Shown piece by piece: positions 3,333-31,820 of a stretch of 64,000 bases of DNA. The notes below the pieces were generated by a model. The model saw only the letters and a program-made list of their open reading frames with translations, did not search any database and was not told the DNA's origin. Source of the stretch: Escherichia coli (GTDB lineage: Bacteria > Pseudomonadota > Gammaproteobacteria > Enterobacterales > Enterobacteriaceae); the NCBI RefSeq assembly GCF_016026235.1, contig NZ_CP065613.1. The stretch is one strand, 5' to 3'. Positions within the stretch are counted from its first letter, which is position 1. Each line of letters begins with the position of its first letter. The translations under genes were made by a program, and so were the position numbers.

Positions 3333-3626
3333 TCAGAGTTGCCAGAAATTCGGCTTTTTTTCTGCGGGCAGATTATTTCCGATGTAAACCAGGCACATTT
3401 TTGTGGCACCTTCAACAAGAGTTTTAAAGTTTCCTGATAGACCGTCGATATCAACCACAGTGAATGGGGTTTCTTTATTTTCTGTTTTAATTACGTAGCC
3501 AATATGCTTTCCTTCCAGGTAAACCTCGTGAACAATGTTATCAGTAGTTGCAACAGTGGCTTCATAATTGGTGTTCATGTTTTTCTCCTTAATTAAGGTT
3601 GAGCGAATCCCTGCCATTGCTGGCAT
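3333..3626 (-). CDS. Hypothetical phage protein
   Basis: 97 aa ORF in co-oriented early-left gene series. Confidence 0.45.
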   Translation of the reverse strand: MPAMAGIRSTLIKEKNMNTNYEATVATTDNIVHEVYLEGKHIGYVIKTENKETPFTVVDIDGLSGNFKTLVEGATKMCLVYIGNNLPAEKKPNFWQL

Positions 3627-3652
3627 AAATTCAGTTTCGAATAGTCAGTTAA

Positions 3653-4505: not shown

Positions 4506-4670
4506 GATGGCAGCCTCGATAGTCAGTTTAAATAACTCACCACCAGAGGTAGCAATCTCATGGGTGGTGAGACGCACAGGGTTGCTACAACCGGTGACTA
4601 CCGAAACCGGCCAGCCTTGCGGCTGCCCTGCACGCCCCACCATAATCTGAATGTGGCTGTGCTTGACGCA

Positions 4671-4694
4671 TAAAAAAACCGCCTGAGCGCGGTT
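4671..4694 (-). terminator. Intrinsic terminator (minus strand)
   Basis: Stem aaccgc/gcggtt with 6-nt loop followed by a 7-A run on plus strand (U-run on minus transcript). Confidence 0.45.
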
Positions 4695-4821
4695 ATGCGC
4701 AGTAGTCATCGTCGGGGTAGCAATCCCGGCCCCCGTTTTATGAGGTGCAGGTGCACTATAATTCCACCCGTTCTGGTTTTCAATAGCTACATTCAACATT
4801 TTCTCTCACCTTTCATCACCG

Positions 4822-10464: not shown

Positions 10465-10691
10465 TTTTATGGGGCACCTTTCTGATTGATTTCATATTGG
10501 CGAGGTAAGTAGAATGACTGCGGGTGCTTGAGGCTATCTGCTTCAGGCATGAACACCAAAAGGCAGATAGAGAAAAGCCCCAGTTAACATTACGCGTCCG
10601 GCAAGACGCTTAACATTAATCTGAGGCCAATTTCATGCTTTGCACATGTAGGTTAGCCTCTTACATGCCGAAAGGCAAGGAGAAGCAGGCT

Positions 10692-10847
10692 ATGAAGCAG
10701 CAAAAGGCGATGTTAATCGCCCTGATCGTCATCTGTTTAACCGTCATAGTGACGGCACTGGTAACGAGGAAAGACCTCTGTGAGGTACGAATCCGAACCG
10801 GCCAGACGGAGGTCGCTGTCTTCGTAGACTACGAATCCAGGAAGTAA
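10692..10847 (+). CDS. hok: Hok/Gef-family type I toxin
   Basis: 51 aa MKQQKAMLIALIVICLTVIVTALVTRKDLCEVRIRTGQTEVAVF, near-canonical Hok; in-frame upstream extension from 10635 may be mok-like. Confidence 0.8.
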   Translation: MKQQKAMLIALIVICLTVIVTALVTRKDLCEVRIRTGQTEVAVFVDYESRK

Positions 10848-13052: not shown

Positions 13053-13129
13053 GGCCCTTTAGCTCAGTTGGTCAGAGCGAGCGACTCATAATCGCCAGGT
13101 CGCTGGTTCAAGTCCAGCAAGGGCCACCA
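13053..13129 (+). tRNA. tRNA-Ile2 (anticodon CAU; could also be read as Met)
   Basis: Hand-folded cloverleaf; anticodon loop ctCATaa; close to E. coli ileX-type from memory; ends CCA. Confidence 0.8.
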
Positions 13130-13130
13130 A

Positions 13131-13207
13131 CCACCACTAGCTCATCCGGATAGAGCATCAACCTTCTAAGTTGACGGTGCGAGGTTCGAGTCCTCGGTGG
13201 TGGGCCA
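13131..13207 (+). tRNA. tRNA-Arg (anticodon UCU)
   Basis: Acceptor ccaccac/gtggtgg, anticodon loop ctTCTaa, T-arm ggttcgagtcc, 3' GCCA. Confidence 0.75.
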
Positions 13208-13209
13208 GC

Positions 13210-13285
<76 letters not shown>

Positions 13286-13288
13286 TAT

Positions 13289-13363
<75 letters not shown>

Positions 13364-25026: not shown

Positions 25027-26172
25027 ATGGCACAGGGCTTGCCTGTATCAAACGTTGTTAATGTTGATGTGATCATGTCGCCGCGTGCAGCATCAGGGCG
25101 AAATTTTGGTGCATTACTCATTCTCGGCCCGTCCACAATCATTCCGGTAAGTGAGCGCATTCGCCGTTATTCTGCTGCGGAAGATATTGGAAAAGATTTT
25201 GGCGTGGAATCACCAGAATATAAGGCTGCGCAGGTGTTTTTCTCACAATCACCGAAACCTCAGGAGGTTTTTGTTGGTCGTTGGGTGAAAACGAAGGGAG
25301 ACAGCGAACAGGCCACGCCTGAGACGCTGGAGCAGGCTGTGAATGCCATGCTTGATTATACTTCATGGTATGGGCTGGGGATTGCAGACGATGCAGATAT
25401 TCCGGATGCAGACTGGCTGAAAGTGGCTGCGGCGATCGAATCCTCTTCTGTAAGCCGTATTCTGGCGATTACGACAAGCGATGAGAAATGCCTGCAGACT
25501 GCATCCAGCGATGATTTGGCATCAAAACTGAAAACCGCCGGATATTCACGCAGTTTTATTCAGTATTCATCGGGTAATAAATACGCTGCGTTATCTGCAT
25601 TTGGCCGGGCATTCACGGTTAATTTCAATGGCAGTAATACCGCGATTACGCTCAAGTTTAAGCAGGAGCCGGGTGTCGGGTATGAAACACTGACAGTCAG
25701 CCAGGCATCGGCACTTGATGCAAAAAACTGCAATGTATTCGTGTACTACCAGAATGATACGGCTATCCTCCAGCAGGGAGTGATGGCTAACGGCGATTTC
25801 TTTGATGAACGCCACGGCCTGGACTGGTTACAGAATTATGTGCAGACCAACCTCTATAACCTGCTTTATACCAGCACCACGAAAGTACCCCAGAGTGAAG
25901 CCGGTATTACCCGACTGTTATCAAGTGTTGAAAAATCACTGGATCAGGCCGTTCAGAATGGACTGATTGCTCCGGGCGTATGGAACGGTGGCGACCTTGG
26001 TCAGTTGTCATCAGGTGACACGCTGCCCAAAGGTTATTACGTATACGCCCAGCCGCTGGATGAACAGGCACAATCAGAACGTGAAGCCCGTAAGGCTCCG
26101 GTGATTCAGGCTGCAATAAAACTTGCAGGCGCGGTTCATTACGCTGACGTACAGATTAACGTTGTTCGCTAA
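25027..26172 (+). CDS. Tail sheath protein (contractile tail)
   Basis: 381 aa, first gene of sheath–tube–chaperone–tape-measure order. Confidence 0.65.
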
Positions 26173-26182
26173 GGGGAAGTGA

Positions 26183-26623
26183 ATGTCTACCTATTCTTTT
26201 ATGGATGTCACTGCGACGCTGACCGGGCCGACCGGTTCGATTGACCTCGGGTACGGTTCGGCAAGTTCTGAAGAGGGGATTGTGGTTGCGATGGGCGGTC
26301 CTAAAAACACCATGACCATCGGTGCTGATGGCGAAGTGATGCACAGTCTCCATGCAGATAAAAGCGGGACGATTACCGTTAACCTTCTGAAGACATCACC
26401 GACAAATAAAAAATTGTCGCTGGCGTATAACGCACAGAGCCAGTCTTCTGCCACATGGGGGAATAACGTTATTGTGATCCGAAACAAGGTCAGCGGCGAC
26501 ATCATCACGGCACGCAGTGTTGCGTTCCAGAAACAACCGGATAACGCCAACGCTAAAACCGGTAATACGATGCCGTGGGTGCTTGACTGCGGCAAGATTG
26601 ACCAGGTTCTCGGGGAGTTTTAA
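26183..26623 (+). CDS. Tail tube protein
   Basis: 146 aa directly after sheath gene. Confidence 0.6.
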   Translation: MSTYSFMDVTATLTGPTGSIDLGYGSASSEEGIVVAMGGPKNTMTIGADGEVMHSLHADKSGTITVNLLKTSPTNKKLSLAYNAQSQSSATWGNNVIVIRNKVSGDIITARSVAFQKQPDNANAKTGNTMPWVLDCGKIDQVLGEF

Positions 26624-26626
26624 TAC

Positions 26627-27079
26627 ATGGAATTCGAAATCAAAGGCGTGAAATATCGCGCGGCAAAACTCAGCGTTTTTGACCAGCTGAAAGTGACCCG
26701 CAAACTTCTGCCGGTGCTGGCAGGAATGATGTCAGATTTCGGGAGCATTCGCTCCCGTTTGCCTGCTGACGGCAAAATAGACACCGTGAAATTCGAGCAG
26801 TTAAAACCGGTGTTTGAAACCATGCTCCCGCGTATCGCTGAGGAACTGTCTTCCCTGACCGAAGATGACACCAGTGCAATTATTCATCCCTGTCTTGCGG
26901 TGGTGTCGCGGCGTCATATGGACGGATGGGTGCCGGTATTTACCCAGGGCGAACTGATGTTTGATGATATTGACCTGCTGGTCATGCTGCAGCTGGTGGC
27001 GCGGGTGGTCGCCGATTCGCTAGGAAATTTTTTGCAAGGACACCCTACCAAAGAGACGCCCATCCCGCCAGCGGAATAA
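26627..27079 (+). CDS. Tail assembly chaperone (0-frame product)
   Basis: 150 aa just upstream of tape-measure gene; contains slippery heptamer near 3' end. Confidence 0.6.
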   Translation: MEFEIKGVKYRAAKLSVFDQLKVTRKLLPVLAGMMSDFGSIRSRLPADGKIDTVKFEQLKPVFETMLPRIAEELSSLTEDDTSAIIHPCLAVVSRRHMDGWVPVFTQGELMFDDIDLLVMLQLVARVVADSLGNFLQGHPTKETPIPPAE

Positions 27080-27276
27080 CCTTCAATAGCCTGCCGGGTG
27101 GTGAAGATTTTATTCTTCGTCCGGCGCTTGCCTTCCATATTGACCAGAAAGATCTTAACAGTGGTGCGGTAGATCTCTGTCGCATCGCGCTTCTTAATGA
27201 CTACCTTGATATGTGCGAGGACAACGATGTCCGGGTAGAAAAATGGAGAGAGGATAATGAACGCCGAGACTATTAA
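27028..27276 (+). other. Candidate programmed -1 frameshift: slippery T_TTT_TTG (27028-27034) plus -1 frame extension to 27276
   Basis: aaT TTT TTG in chaperone frame; -1 frame stays open ~80 codons to TAA 27274-27276, overlapping tape-measure start. Confidence 0.5.
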
Positions 27277-29209
27277 AGATTTCCTCGTCTCGCTTGGCTT
27301 CAGTGTGGATGATGCAGGAGCGAAAAAGTTCGGTTCTGTCCTCGCCGGTACAACTGCAAATGTCATCAAAATGGGGCTGGCTGTTGAAGGAGCTGCGCTG
27401 TCCGTGGTGGCCTTCACGGCTAAGATCGCCTCCGGTCTGGATAATCTTTACTGGGCGTCACAGCGCACCGGCGCGACAGTCCAGGGAATTCAGTCTATTG
27501 GCTATGCGGTTTCGCAGGTTGGCGGCAGCGTGGACGCTGCGCGATCTTCTCTGGAAAGCCTCTCCCGGTTTATTCGTAACAATCCCGGTGCAGAAGGCTT
27601 TCTGAATCGCCTGGGCGTACAGACCCGTGATGCCAGCGGTAACATGCGTGACATGGCCGCTATTTTTACTGGTGTAGGCCAGAAGCTCAGCGGTATGCCG
27701 TATTACCGGGCTAACCAGTATGCGCAGATGCTGGGCATTGACGAAAATACCCTTATGGCTATGCGTCGCGGAGTGGGGCAGTTCAGCGCTCAGTATTCAG
27801 AAATGGTGAAAGCGATCGGATTTAATGCCGATCAGGCTGCCTTATCGTCAAACCGGTTTATGACCTCGCTGAAATCGCTCGGTGAAATGGCCGGGATGGC
27901 GCGGGACAAAATCGGATCGAATCTTGCGGACGGACTGGCGGGGCAGATTGATAACCTGCGCAAAAAGATAATTGAAAATTTTCCCAAAATTGAAGTCACC
28001 ATCACAAAGGTCATAAAGGGGATCCTCTGGCTGGGTGAGATAGTCGGGCGGGGTGCATTCCGGATAGTCGATGGTGTCGGAGATATCATCGAGTGGTGGG
28101 GGAAACTGGATGCCGAAACGAAAACCCTGATAGAGGTTATCGGCGGTCTGGTTGTCGCCATGCGGATACTTAACTCTACTTTCTGGATGTCACCTATAGG
28201 GCTGATTACCGGTCTGATCGTGGCTCTCGGTCTCTTGTGGGAAGACTACAAAACATGGAAAGAAGGCGGTAACAGTCTTATCGACTGGGAAAAATGGCAA
28301 CCAGCAATAGATAAAGCGAAGGATGCGATCACCTGGCTTCGTGATCACCTTCTGGAACTAAAAGATGGTGTTGGCGGCTGGCAAAATGCACTGGAAATCC
28401 TCGGTACATTCATCGCGGGTGTCTGGGTATCCAAGGTTCTGGGGGCTTTCGGGAAAATATCAGGTTTGCTGGTCCCGCCGTGGTTAAAAGGCTGGATGGC
28501 TTATGCTGCGTATTTGTACTCTGATCGCGAAAATATTGGTGCCAGTGCGAAGTCATCCTGGGATTACACGAAACAAAATATTGGAGGTTCATTGCGCTGG
28601 CTTGGCATTGATACCGATTTTGGTCGTAATCCTCATACCGTAAAAGGCGCAAATATTCAGTCAGATATTCCAGGTGCTGAGCCGGAACAACATGCGCAGT
28701 CTACGAAGCGTACTTTAGCCGATCGGAATAACAATCCAGGGAATATTCGCCCGGTGAGCGGTAAAGGGTTCCGGTTTTTCGAATCAGCTCTTGAGGGCTG
28801 GGAGGCGATGAAAAACCAGCTCATGCGTTACTTTACTGGGAAAACAACCGGACGGGCATTACAGACTATTCAGGATATTGTCAGTACCTGGGCCCCGGCA
28901 GGTGATAACAACGATCCGAAAAAGTATGCACAGGATGTTGCGAAATGGATGGGAGTATCACCGAATGCAATATTGAATCTTACAGATCCCCGGACTATGG
29001 GAGCATTGATGCAGTCGATGGCGCGCAAAGAAGGTTATTCAAACTGGAACAGCCCGCTGGCGTATCAGGCCGCCGCTGGCAACCTTAACCAGCAGACTGT
29101 TATAAATGTTCATGGAGTTAACAACCCTCAGGAGGCGGCTAATCTGATCGCTGACAAGCAGGGGGCTGTAAATGCCAGGGCGGTACAGCAATTGAAAGGA
29201 CCTGCGTAA
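27257..29209 (+). CDS. Tail tape measure protein
   Basis: 650 aa; Gly/Ala-rich hydrophobic central segments. Confidence 0.7.
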   Translation: MNAETIKDFLVSLGFSVDDAGAKKFGSVLAGTTANVIKMGLAVEGAALSVVAFTAKIASGLDNLYWASQRTGATVQGIQSIGYAVSQVGGSVDAARSSLESLSRFIRNNPGAEGFLNRLGVQTRDASGNMRDMAAIFTGVGQKLSGMPYYRANQYAQMLGIDENTLMAMRRGVGQFSAQYSEMVKAIGFNADQAALSSNRFMTSLKSLGEMAGMARDKIGSNLADGLAGQIDNLRKKIIENFPKIEVTITKVIKGILWLGEIVGRGAFRIVDGVGDIIEWWGKLDAETKTLIEVIGGLVVAMRILNSTFWMSPIGLITGLIVALGLLWEDYKTWKEGGNSLIDWEKWQPAIDKAKDAITWLRDHLLELKDGVGGWQNALEILGTFIAGVWVSKVLGAFGKISGLLVPPWLKGWMAYAAYLYSDRENIGASAKSSWDYTKQNIGGSLRWLGIDTDFGRNPHTVKGANIQSDIPGAEPEQHAQSTKRTLADRNNNPGNIRPVSGKGFRFFESALEGWEAMKNQLMRYFTGKTTGRALQTIQDIVSTWAPAGDNNDPKKYAQDVAKWMGVSPNAILNLTDPRTMGALMQSMARKEGYSNWNSPLAYQAAAGNLNQQTVINVHGVNNPQEAANLIADKQGAVNARAVQQLKGPA

Positions 29210-29862: not shown

Positions 29863-30165
29863 ATGAAAGCCGTAGAAATCCCACTGGTTGCTGACAATCA
29901 GACTTTTGCCACCACAATTAACGGTTCGGTTTATCACCTGTCTGTCATCTGGCGAGGCGAGTGCTGGGTTCTGGATCTTGCTGACAGCAATGGCTCCGCC
30001 ATTATATCAGGTATACCGATGATTACGGGGGCTGACCTGCTGGCACAGTATCGATATATGGATCTGGGTTTTTCTCTGGTGGTGCTCTGCGACGTGGCAG
30101 GGCAGGAGAATCCGACGCAATTCGATCTTGGAACGCTCTCACACCTCTATGTTTTCACGGAGTAA
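29863..30165 (+). CDS. Tail protein, hypothetical
   Basis: 100 aa ORF. Confidence 0.45.
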   Translation: MKAVEIPLVADNQTFATTINGSVYHLSVIWRGECWVLDLADSNGSAIISGIPMITGADLLAQYRYMDLGFSLVVLCDVAGQENPTQFDLGTLSHLYVFTE

Positions 30166-30167
30166 CA

Positions 30168-31208
30168 ATGTCGAAAAACTGGATGCGTCACTTTGAATTA
30201 TTGCTTGTTGATGATAAGGGCGACGGGATAAAAATTTCTGAGCTTAAAGTCACTTTCAATATTCAGAAAATGCCTGCGACCATATTTAATGGATTTGTTG
30301 GAAATTTTAAGGTTTATAACCTGTCTCCTACCACTCAGAACCGGATTATGCAGAAGGAGTTTTCGCGTATACAGGTTATTGCCGGATACAAGGGGCAACC
30401 GGATGCAGCAGGTAATTATCCTGATGAAAACGTTGGTATGATATTCAATGGAGATATCCGTTTTACTGTCACTGGTAAAGATAATGCCACAGACAGTTGG
30501 ATCATGTTGCAGTGTATTGACAGCTGGGAAGGCCACCTGAACGCAAGTGTGAAAACCACAGTGGCTGCTGGCTGGAAGTACAGCGATCTTTTCAGTCTGG
30601 GTATGAAATCATTCGAACCATATGGCATCGAATCCGGTGCAGTTCCTGACATGCCTGAAACGGTATTTCCCCGAGGTCGCGTTGTTTATCAAAACACATC
30701 AAGGTTGATGAATCATATCGCAGGGCAGTGTAAAGCTAACTGGTGGTATGAAAATAATCTGGTAAATATTGTTCCTGAAGATAAATATATTGGTGTTGCT
30801 ACGGTGTTGAATGCTAACACCGGGCTTATCAGTATGCCACAGCAGACGATGGGAGCTGGCGTAAATGTCAGATGTCTGATTAATCCAAATATTAAGCTCG
30901 GTGGGCTTATTCGTCTGGATCAGGCATCTGTATACCGTGCCTCTTTGAGTAATGACCAGGTAGCGAAATCGCCAGCACGACTGGATGAGTCTGAAAGCGA
31001 CGGTAATCTCTACGTTAACGGTCTGCCAGGCATGTCACAGCCTGCCAGCATTAATACTGACGGTGATTACATTGTGGGCAGCATTGATTATACTGGCGAC
31101 ACCCGAGGGCAGGCGTGGTATATGGACCTGCTTTGCCTGGCTAAAGGGAGTAAAAGTTTACTCACTCCTGATACGATAGCGAAAATAAGTGGGGTACCAA
31201 ATGCTTAA
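30168..31208 (+). CDS. Baseplate hub-like protein
   Basis: 346 aa ORF in baseplate module. Confidence 0.5.
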   Translation: MSKNWMRHFELLLVDDKGDGIKISELKVTFNIQKMPATIFNGFVGNFKVYNLSPTTQNRIMQKEFSRIQVIAGYKGQPDAAGNYPDENVGMIFNGDIRFTVTGKDNATDSWIMLQCIDSWEGHLNASVKTTVAAGWKYSDLFSLGMKSFEPYGIESGAVPDMPETVFPRGRVVYQNTSRLMNHIAGQCKANWWYENNLVNIVPEDKYIGVATVLNANTGLISMPQQTMGAGVNVRCLINPNIKLGGLIRLDQASVYRASLSNDQVAKSPARLDESESDGNLYVNGLPGMSQPASINTDGDYIVGSIDYTGDTRGQAWYMDLLCLAKGSKSLLTPDTIAKISGVPNA

Positions 31209-31443
31209 ATGGATCTTATTACTGGTATATTTTGTGACTTTGTCTTCTGTGGCTGCGGTAACATGCACCACTTCAAATACAGGAACAACTTACTGTACTG
31301 GTACAGACAGTAGTGGTTCTACAGTTAAAACAGAATCTTATACAACCAATACAGGTACTACGTATACCACAGGAACGATTAATGGGAGTGCAGTACATCG
31401 TGAATGCCAGGCGACCAATACTGGCACAACGTACTGTAATTAA
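31201..31443 (+). CDS. Small secreted Thr/Gly-rich repeat protein (moron candidate)
   Basis: ~80 aa from ATG 31201; hydrophobic signal-like N-terminus; three NTGTTY(C/T) repeats with Cys. Confidence 0.45.
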   Translation: MLKWILLLVYFVTLSSVAAVTCTTSNTGTTYCTGTDSSGSTVKTESYTTNTGTTYTTGTINGSAVHRECQATNTGTTYCN

Positions 31444-31478: not shown

Positions 31479-31820
31479 ATGAAGAAAATATTCCTTCTCG
31501 CAGTGTTGACTCCAACAATTTGTGTAGGTGGAACGCTGAATGATTTTTTTGGACTGCACACCTCACTGGCTGATAACTACATCATCAAGAGAGAGATCAC
31601 AAATAGGGCTGTTTCTAATGCGGCTATGGACGCTGTATCTAATGGTCGTGAGGCGGATTTTGGTGATGAGTTAATGAAAGAACATGGTGATAGTTATGGT
31701 GAAATAGCTCTGCGTCAACTCGCTTTCGAGTGCGGTTATTCTTTTTCCGATAGTGGCCAATCTCTTACGATTCTAAAAAAAGAAGAATGTAGATTGGTGC
31801 TATCTGAAAATAAGAAATGA
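31479..31820 (+). CDS. Small secreted/lipoprotein-like protein (moron candidate)
   Basis: 113 aa; N-terminal signal-like MKKIFLLAVLTPTICVGG; followed by terminator. Confidence 0.45.
   Translation: MKKIFLLAVLTPTICVGGTLNDFFGLHTSLADNYIIKREITNRAVSNAAMDAVSNGREADFGDELMKEHGDSYGEIALRQLAFECGYSFSDSGQSLTILKKEECRLVLSENKK

Follow-up and report, generated by a model that had tools for sequence, protein, structure and literature searches.

The tail assembly chaperone gene of an Escherichia coli prophage very likely uses a programmed -1 ribosomal frameshift of the G/GT type (E/E+E' in phage P2), adding a conserved C-terminal extension to a minority of its products. The gene lies in a stretch of 64,000 nucleotides of E. 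coli DNA, which we call the window. We observed the sequence anatomy of such a site, its conservation among relatives, and selection acting on the -1 frame, and we found that the extension has no start of its own.

The chaperone gene and its -1 frame extension

The genes around it form the tail module of a contractile-tailed prophage, and positions 26627-27276 share 99.8% identity with E. coli strain FDAARGOS_943. A tail sheath gene (25027-26172; DUF3383) precedes a tail tube gene (26183-26623; Pfam PF11681, E = 1.7e-60, labeled Phage_Tube_PhiTE), which is directly upstream of the chaperone gene. The tape measure gene follows (27257-29209; phrog_2276 "tail length tape measure protein," 1e-252). 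It has a C-terminal lytic transglycosylase-like region, and its name in RefSeq is "lytic transglycosylase catalytic." Baseplate genes (Dit-like, Pam3_gp18 plug, and E217_GP41 hub) are located 3' of it. The order is sheath, tube, chaperone, and tape measure, with the chaperone and its extension between tube and tape measure, where the G/GT and E/E+E' genes also lie. The tube, chaperone, and tape measure genes are on the plus strand, as are the slippery heptamers, the Shine-Dalgarno (SD)-like element, the extension, and its domain described below.

The zero frame of the chaperone (tail assembly, or tape measure, chaperone; 26627-27079) encodes the short product of 150 amino acids (aa). Residues 6-137 match Pfam PF21822 (Phage_TAC_15) with an E value of 4e-31 and 108.6 bits (cutoff, 22), and the protein also matches phrog_1688 (1.6e-64). 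Near the 3' end, the zero-frame codons read CTA (27020) GGA AAT (27026) TTT (27029) TTG (27032) CAA and contain two overlapping canonical heptamers, A_AAT_TTT (27025-27031; register 1) and T_TTT_TTG (27028-27034; register 2). Both are in X_XXY_YYZ phase and inside the overlap of the zero and -1 frames. T_TTT_TTG covers codons 135-136 of 150, and the stop is 15 codons further on. A slip in register 1 would give join(26627..27031,27031..27276), reading ...GNFFARTPY..., and a slip in register 2 would give join(26627..27034,27034..27276), reading ...GNFLARTPY...; either product has 216 aa. The predicted tryptic junction peptide is VVADSLGNFFAR for A_AAT_TTT (or for RNA slippage) and VVADSLGNFLAR for T_TTT_TTG.

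The -1 frame has no stop between 26974 and a TAA at 27274-27276, which amounts to 82 codons counted from 27028. The extension proper (27031-27276) consists of 81 new codons after the slip plus the TAA, and 65 codons lie past the zero-frame stop. Its end overlaps the tape measure start (ATG, 27257) by 20 nucleotides (nt). The +1 frame closes three codons past the chaperone stop and was rejected as an alternative. Positions 27145-27258 of the extension (fusion residues 174-211) match Pfam PF21829 (DUF6889) over profile positions 3-40 of 40 (43.9 bits versus a cutoff of 23.9; E = 2e-11), and the extension also matches phrog_4364 (3.2e-17). The predicted fusion of 216 aa (~24 kDa) would consist of the chaperone domain, a linker of the form F-[FY]-x-R-[TA]-[PA]-Y ... 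LPxGED, and a C-terminal helical domain, DUF6889. A PDB sequence search with the fusion profile returned no relative.

A heptamer followed by an open frame is insufficient as stand-alone evidence. Among the window's open reading frames (ORFs) of at least 100 aa, we counted those with an in-phase heptamer in the last 40 codons and at least 20 open -1 codons past the stop, and 5 of 122 (~4%) had both. As this combination is not rare, our claim is based on the comparative evidence, which is strong.

Conservation of the extension and of the slippery codons

We gathered loci from IMG/VR (80 loci), species-representative genomes (44), and phage records (19) and recognized the chaperone in 132 of them. 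In 130 of these 132 loci, the -1 frame is open for at least 50 codons past the stop and ends 4 to 20 nt inside the tape measure gene; the two exceptions (L058 and L122) have apparent indels. The architecture is kept in phages of Acinetobacter, Burkholderia, Ralstonia, Bordetella, Providencia, and Edwardsiella at ~27 to 39% chaperone identity, and the motif LPxGED[WF]L[LM]RPV...DLADIALMND...ADNE persists in those distant phages. Past the zero-frame stop, differences at codon positions 1/2/3 of the -1 frame number 1/3/17 between the window and Citrobacter phage Omnitron and 5/2/26 between phage 689R2 and SEN34. The -1 frame dN/dS ratio is 0.06 for the window versus Omnitron and 0.03 to 0.19 in most pairs. 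These values indicate that the -1 frame is under strong purifying selection.

Selection also marks the place where the frame would change. From the heptamer to the zero-frame stop, the mean pairwise identity among 42 nonredundant sequences is 57% in the -1 frame versus 33% in the zero frame. The better conservation of the -1 reading before the stop implies that this frame is translated from the heptamer onward. In five relatives the -1 frame has a stop 2 to 4 codons before the heptamer, so that the frame can change only within the slippery run.

Synonymous variation was analyzed in 42 nonredundant enterobacterial-type sequences (median pairwise nucleotide identity, 63%). The observed/expected ratio is ~0.85 to 1.4 at residues 1-118, 0.14 at residues 134-139, and 0.4 to 0.8 through the dual-coded tail. 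All 37 of 37 Asn134 codons are AAT, whereas AAC outnumbers AAT (91 to 41) in the rest of these genes; Phe135 is TTT in 42 of 42, with a TTT-to-TTC ratio of 130 to 107 elsewhere. Codon 136 is TTG, TTT, or TTA (synonymous ratio, 0.11). The collapse of synonymous variation exactly at AAT-TTT-TTG points to selection on the slippery nucleotides themselves. Nearly all of 682 homologous proteins are unfused chaperones of ~150 aa. Only one full-length fusion occurs among them, encoded on a contig (L145) with a T7 run. This near-absence of fused ORFs fits a need for both products.

The preliminary description of this DNA had placed a T_TTT_TTG heptamer in the zero frame near the end of the chaperone gene, followed by a -1 frame of about 80 codons that overlaps the tape measure start, and had assigned the pair to the conserved G/GT (E/E') arrangement of tailed phages. 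The positions given above bear out the first two points, and the assignment is upheld by the gene order, the DUF6889 domain, purifying selection, and the presence of T_TTT_TTN in 43 of 43 nonredundant enterobacterial-type sequences. A comparison with extensions of related phages had also been proposed, with attention to whether the -1 frame is closed in relatives; it is open in all but the two loci with apparent indels.

The conserved frame could instead be an independent small gene, started at the ATA at 27076 or by termination-reinitiation at the chaperone stop, that makes a free protein of 66 aa with no frameshift. This is how the annotation reads: RefSeq/PGAP calls precisely 27076-27276 as a separate 66-aa "DUF6889 family protein" (WP_374756843.1), the same protein (MTFNSLPGG...) is deposited on 95 contigs, equivalents of 63 aa are found on ~1000, and short ORFs are called there in several phage records. 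The annotated start is ATA, however, which is Ile in the DNA. The only in-frame ATG, GTG, or TTG of the window's extension is codon 60 of 81, inside DUF6889 and past LPxGED (codon 20), and in the closest relatives none of the three occurs before extension codon 48. The starts called in relatives are inconsistent and truncate the conserved LPxGED region. A separate gene would not account for the conservation of the -1 frame from the heptamer on, before the zero-frame stop (57% versus 33%), and would leave the lack of synonymous variation in the slippery codons unexplained. We therefore consider an independent gene very unlikely, and the separate RefSeq gene with its ATA start is probably an artifact.

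The same two frames could also be joined in the transcript if RNA polymerase stuttered on the T6 run (27028-27033) and added one U, so that a subpopulation of mRNA encoded ...GNFFARTPY..., a product identical to that of register 1. The run is invariant in the enterobacterial clade as T6 (sometimes T7), and the T7 variant of contig L145 joins both frames at the DNA level, which indicates that the run is length unstable. Known bacterial sites of transcriptional slippage, however, are runs of about nine or more A/T, and the window has six. Distant relatives with the same architecture have only T4 (AAATTTTATT and CCCTTTTATT), which is too short. The AAT before the run is frozen as well (37 of 37), a pattern that fits tRNA re-pairing and not polymerase slippage, and the identical TTTTTTG of P2 is described as a site of translational frameshifting (PMC3091744). 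Transcriptional slippage thus appears highly improbable as the source of the extended product. That a slippery-looking heptamer precedes a fortuitously open frame and yields no extended product is effectively refuted by the comparative data, despite the ~4% background in the window and the weakness of both heptamers without stimulators, since 130 of 132 loci, from many genera, show a conserved -1 frame under purifying selection, the extension matches a Pfam domain, and the slippery nucleotides are frozen.

Candidate slip registers, putative stimulators, and proposed mechanism

For the ribosomal frameshift, the sequence admits a slip on either A_AAT_TTT or T_TTT_TTG and does not decide between them, because the two heptamers overlap. 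The preliminary description, which had missed A_AAT_TTT, named T_TTT_TTG as the slip site, whose phase and conservation stand. Among the 43 nonredundant enterobacterial-type sequences, A_AAT_TTT is canonical in 36, compared with all 43 for T_TTT_TTN. A third heptamer just upstream, G_GGA_AAT, is canonical in 32 and missing from 11. The window has lost it through a change of CTG to CTA (CTA GGA AAT), the sole such case in our first set of 83 phage and IMG/VR loci, and G_GGA_AAT was ruled out as the shift site. In distant relatives, TTT is followed by ATT, ATC, or ATG, and X_XXT_TTT (as A_AAT_TTT, C_CCT_TTT, G_GGT_TTT, or T_TTT_TTT) is the only canonical register in most of them. Two distant phages have the near-cognate forms T_TCT_TTT and G_GAT_TTT, and one has G_GGA_AAT or U_UUC. 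U_UUU is the invariant core family-wide.

Both heptamers have been measured in an E. coli reporter (PMC4066793, Table S3). U_UUU_UUG gave 0.118% frameshifting without a stimulator, 0.247% with the IS911 stimulator, and 0.765% with the IS3 pseudoknot; the corresponding values for A_AAU_UUU were 0.070%, 0.355%, and 11.4%. With a reporter background of ~0.05%, both are intrinsically weak in E. coli when no stimulator is present, and H_HH.U_UU.Y ranks among the best motif classes in this host (PMC4066793).

Upstream of the site we identified a candidate stimulator from sequence statistics, an internal SD-like element, GGGTGGTCG (27003-27011), separated by 14 nt from A_AAT_TTT and by 17 nt from T_TTT_TTG. 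It is the 9-mer with the strongest anti-SD pairing of the whole gene (-12.2 kcal/mol; 8 pairs with the 16S 3' tail). Expected pairing was obtained by synonymous resampling, in which the same amino acids were re-encoded with the codon usage of the family. In the 43 nonredundant enterobacterial sequences, the mean pairing energy at the SD position is -10.7 kcal/mol versus an expected -6.3 kcal/mol, and in 29 of them no more than 5% of the resamples pair as strongly. Along the gene, the SD window alone deviates (-4.25 kcal/mol), and every other window falls between -0.9 and +0.6 kcal/mol. Variants that encode other amino acids keep SD-like strings (AGGTGAT, GGAGGAT, and GAGGAG), and the region has a frozen core of 18 nt, in contrast to the varying synonymous sites on its flanks. 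In 11 distant phages the enrichment falls short of significance, and we do not claim the element as a family-wide feature. The enrichment could also stem from another nucleotide-level constraint. The element probably pauses or tensions the ribosome in the manner of dnaX.

RNA structure gave no comparable signal. The preliminary description had suggested a search for a downstream stimulatory structure, and we found none among pseudoknot-free folds: single-sequence folds had z scores of -0.84 (27035-27134) and +0.84 (26985-27100), and the RNAalifold consensus of nine relatives had an energy of -0.49 kcal/mol with two invariant pairs and no covariation. An upstream hairpin, GGCG-N8-CGCC (26998-27013), suggested by the frozen 18-nt core, was dropped because its stem varies in the broader sample while the SD-like pairing stays.

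In the mechanism that we infer, which covers the slip itself, its register and efficiency, the role of the SD-like element, and the functions of the proteins, most ribosomes would read 26627-27079 and release the 150-aa chaperone. A minority would move back by one nucleotide on A-AAT-TTT-TTG (27025-27034) and read on in the -1 frame as far as 27276. In register 1 the slipping tRNAs would be tRNA-Asn and tRNA-Phe, and in register 2 they would be tRNA-Phe and tRNA-Leu. The site would work with no downstream RNA structure, and the conserved SD-like element ~14 to 17 nt upstream would serve to pause or tension the ribosome. The slip would yield the 216-aa fusion of chaperone domain, conserved linker, and C-terminal DUF6889. 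By analogy with lambda gpG/gpGT, both products may coat the tape measure protein, and the extension may recruit the tube or another tail component.

A more specific proposal, which we hold tentatively and judge to have somewhat less than an even chance of being right, concerns the enterobacterial branch: a weak U-rich site may be driven there by an SD-like element 12 to 17 nt upstream, in place of a downstream structure, and the extension (linker plus DUF6889) may be an exchangeable module bounded by the slippery site and the tape measure start. If so, a dnaX-style rRNA-mRNA stimulator would operate in a phage frameshift of the G/GT type. If both parts of this proposal are right, RefSeq would contain thousands of "DUF6889 family protein" genes, with starts of the ATA type, that are misannotated C-terminal halves of frameshift fusions.

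Module exchange, annotation, and known systems

The modular character of the extension is suggested by the mosaicism of the locus. The window is 95 to 100% identical to E. coli phage 689R2 up to position 27022 and again from position 27263, versus 52 to 67% for 27023-27262. That same interval is 83 to 95% identical to Citrobacter phage Omnitron, the flanks of which are at ~40 to 88%. These boundaries indicate that the exchanged segment is precisely the -1 extension, that its junctions are the slippery site and the tape measure start, and that the extension has been swapped independently of the tube gene.

A frameshift in the tail chaperone gene is a well-known arrangement in tailed phages, and this family is mostly annotated as two genes. 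What the present locus adds to that arrangement is a second register, the absence of a downstream structure, an SD-like element specific to one clade, exchange of the extension as a module, and a misannotation that is systematic; the functional steps are those we propose above. The Phage_TAC_15 and DUF6889 family is common in Enterobacterales prophages, and annotation pipelines split off an orphan DUF6889 protein with an implausible ATA start. A frameshift would place DUF6889 in context, with the lambda T domain or P2 E' as its counterpart, and many annotations would be corrected. With its overlapping registers G_GGA_AAT, A_AAT_TTT, and T_TTT_TTN, the family offers a natural comparison. It is also a candidate for SD-stimulated frameshifting in phages that is accessible to simple reporters. 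Our literature searches for DUF6889, PF21829, Phage_TAC_15, and DUF3383/DUF3277 together with frameshifting found no paper.

Phage P2 provides the nearest parallel in the slippery site. E/E+E' shifts on TTTTTTG with no downstream structure (PMC3091744, summarizing Christie et al. 2002 and Xu, Hendrix & Duda 2004). P2 and the prophage share a contractile tail, an enterobacterial host, and a small gene adjoining the tape measure gene with a -1 shift on TTTTTTG near its 3' end, which is predicted in our case. Neither has a downstream RNA structure, and their extensions are of similar size (51 aa in P2 versus 81 aa here). Unlike P2, the prophage locus has an overlapping second heptamer and a conserved upstream SD-like element, and its families are Phage_TAC_15 and DUF6889, with no detectable sequence similarity to the P2 proteins. 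The P2 product is supported by experiment, whereas the product here is predicted from the sequence.

With lambda gpG/gpGT (Levin, Hendrix & Casjens 1993; Xu et al. 2013, 2014; PMC5009743), the locus shares the synteny of tube/shaft, chaperone, -1 extension, and tape measure. Common to both, as far as our predictions go, are a low-level shift, two products with the same N terminus, and a site that lacks a strong stimulatory structure (PMC5009743). The presumed role, coating of the tape measure and recruitment of tube subunits, would also be the same. The candidate upstream stimulator has its counterpart in dnaX and IS911 (Larsen et al. 1994; PMC4066793), where an internal SD-like sequence likewise lies within 6 to 17 nt of the heptamer. 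In contrast to our locus, dnaX combines it with a strong downstream hairpin and the highly efficient heptamer A_AAA_AAG, and the role that we suggest for the element here is drawn from sequence statistics only.

True homologues are found in Klebsiella phage Mulock (MN098327) and Burkholderia phage Magia (NC_070954), with chaperone identities of 57% and ~39%, respectively. Both have the Phage_TAC_15 and DUF6889 architecture with a slippery site at the homologous position, and both are deposited as a joined coding sequence, "tape measure chaperone frameshift product," in annotations that are bioinformatic only. The window's extension differs from theirs as another allele, resembling that of phage Omnitron. 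For the join point deposited for Mulock, none of the three candidate sequences was found in the protein collection, and the frameshift goes unmentioned in the paper on the Mulock genome. For Magia, the announcement of the phage does report the identification of a programmed frameshift (PMC7883833). Magia differs from the window in having only C_CCT_TTT, and the fusion that we rebuilt at this heptamer is exactly the deposited Magia protein.

Annotation and continuity of the -1 reading frame

The RefSeq/PGAP annotation presents the -1 ORF at 27076-27276 (3450-3650 in locus record L005) as a separate 66-aa "DUF6889 family protein" that starts at an ATA codon. Similar stand-alone DUF6889 entries occur in about 1000 contigs of Enterobacterales and are probably a systematic annotation artefact in which the frameshift has gone unrecognised. 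Among 132 related loci, the -1 frame was closed early in just two (L058 and L122), 19 and 22 codons beyond the stop, probably owing to indels or to decay of the prophages concerned. A close relative, L145 (Logan contig SRR23924998_45326), carries GGGAAATTTTTTTG at its positions 995-1010, with T7 replacing T6, so that the chaperone and the extension form one unbroken ORF of 213 aa (protein P0001). Either the T7 run stems from a sequencing error in the homopolymer, or L145 is a natural slippage mutant, which would produce the fusion only.

Other elements in the window

Four tRNA genes carried by the phage (Met-CAT, Arg-TCT, Thr-TGT, and Gly-TCC) are clustered at 13053-13363; none of the four tRNAs decodes the slippery codons (Asn, Phe, and Leu). 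In the baseplate region, the plug gene (Pam3_gp18-like, 29863-30165) has a G_GGT_TTT heptamer in phase at 30066-30072, and its -1 frame stays open into the next gene, the hub (E217_GP41-like, 30168-31208). This heptamer is most likely a coincidence, the neighbouring genes happening to stand in a -1 relation. Two small ORFs are inserted between the hub and spike genes and are possible morons: one of 84 aa (31189-31443), whose N-terminus is hydrophobic and in which TNTGTTY-like motifs recur, and one of 113 aa (31479-31820). Neither had a Pfam match.

Rfam matches in the window were kept when above the gathering score. These were C4 antisense RNA and isrK (4560-4748, minus strand), the sok antitoxin RNA (10522-10697), naRNA4 (48741-48811), sRNA-Xcc1 (52311-52399, minus strand), and the lambda cIII thermoregulator (56951-57009, minus strand). 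The cIII thermoregulator match points to a second lambdoid element, located at the window's right end.

Conserved core and exchange of the -1 extension

Upstream of the slippery site, an 18-nt core (GTGGCGCGGGTGGTCGCC, 26996-27013) has the same nucleotides in eight of nine phage relatives, with synonymous sites varying on either side. The internal Shine-Dalgarno-like element (27003-27011) falls within this core; a small hairpin, GGCG-N8-CGCC, is another structure that the core might adopt.

Sequence comparison with the E. coli phage vB_EcoM-689R2 showed that 27023-27262 is only 52-67% identical, against 95-100% in both flanks. Citrobacter phage Omnitron matches this segment at 83-95% identity, and the junctions of the segment fall at the slippery site and at the start of the tape-measure gene. 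The segment is a mosaic replacement of precisely the -1 extension.
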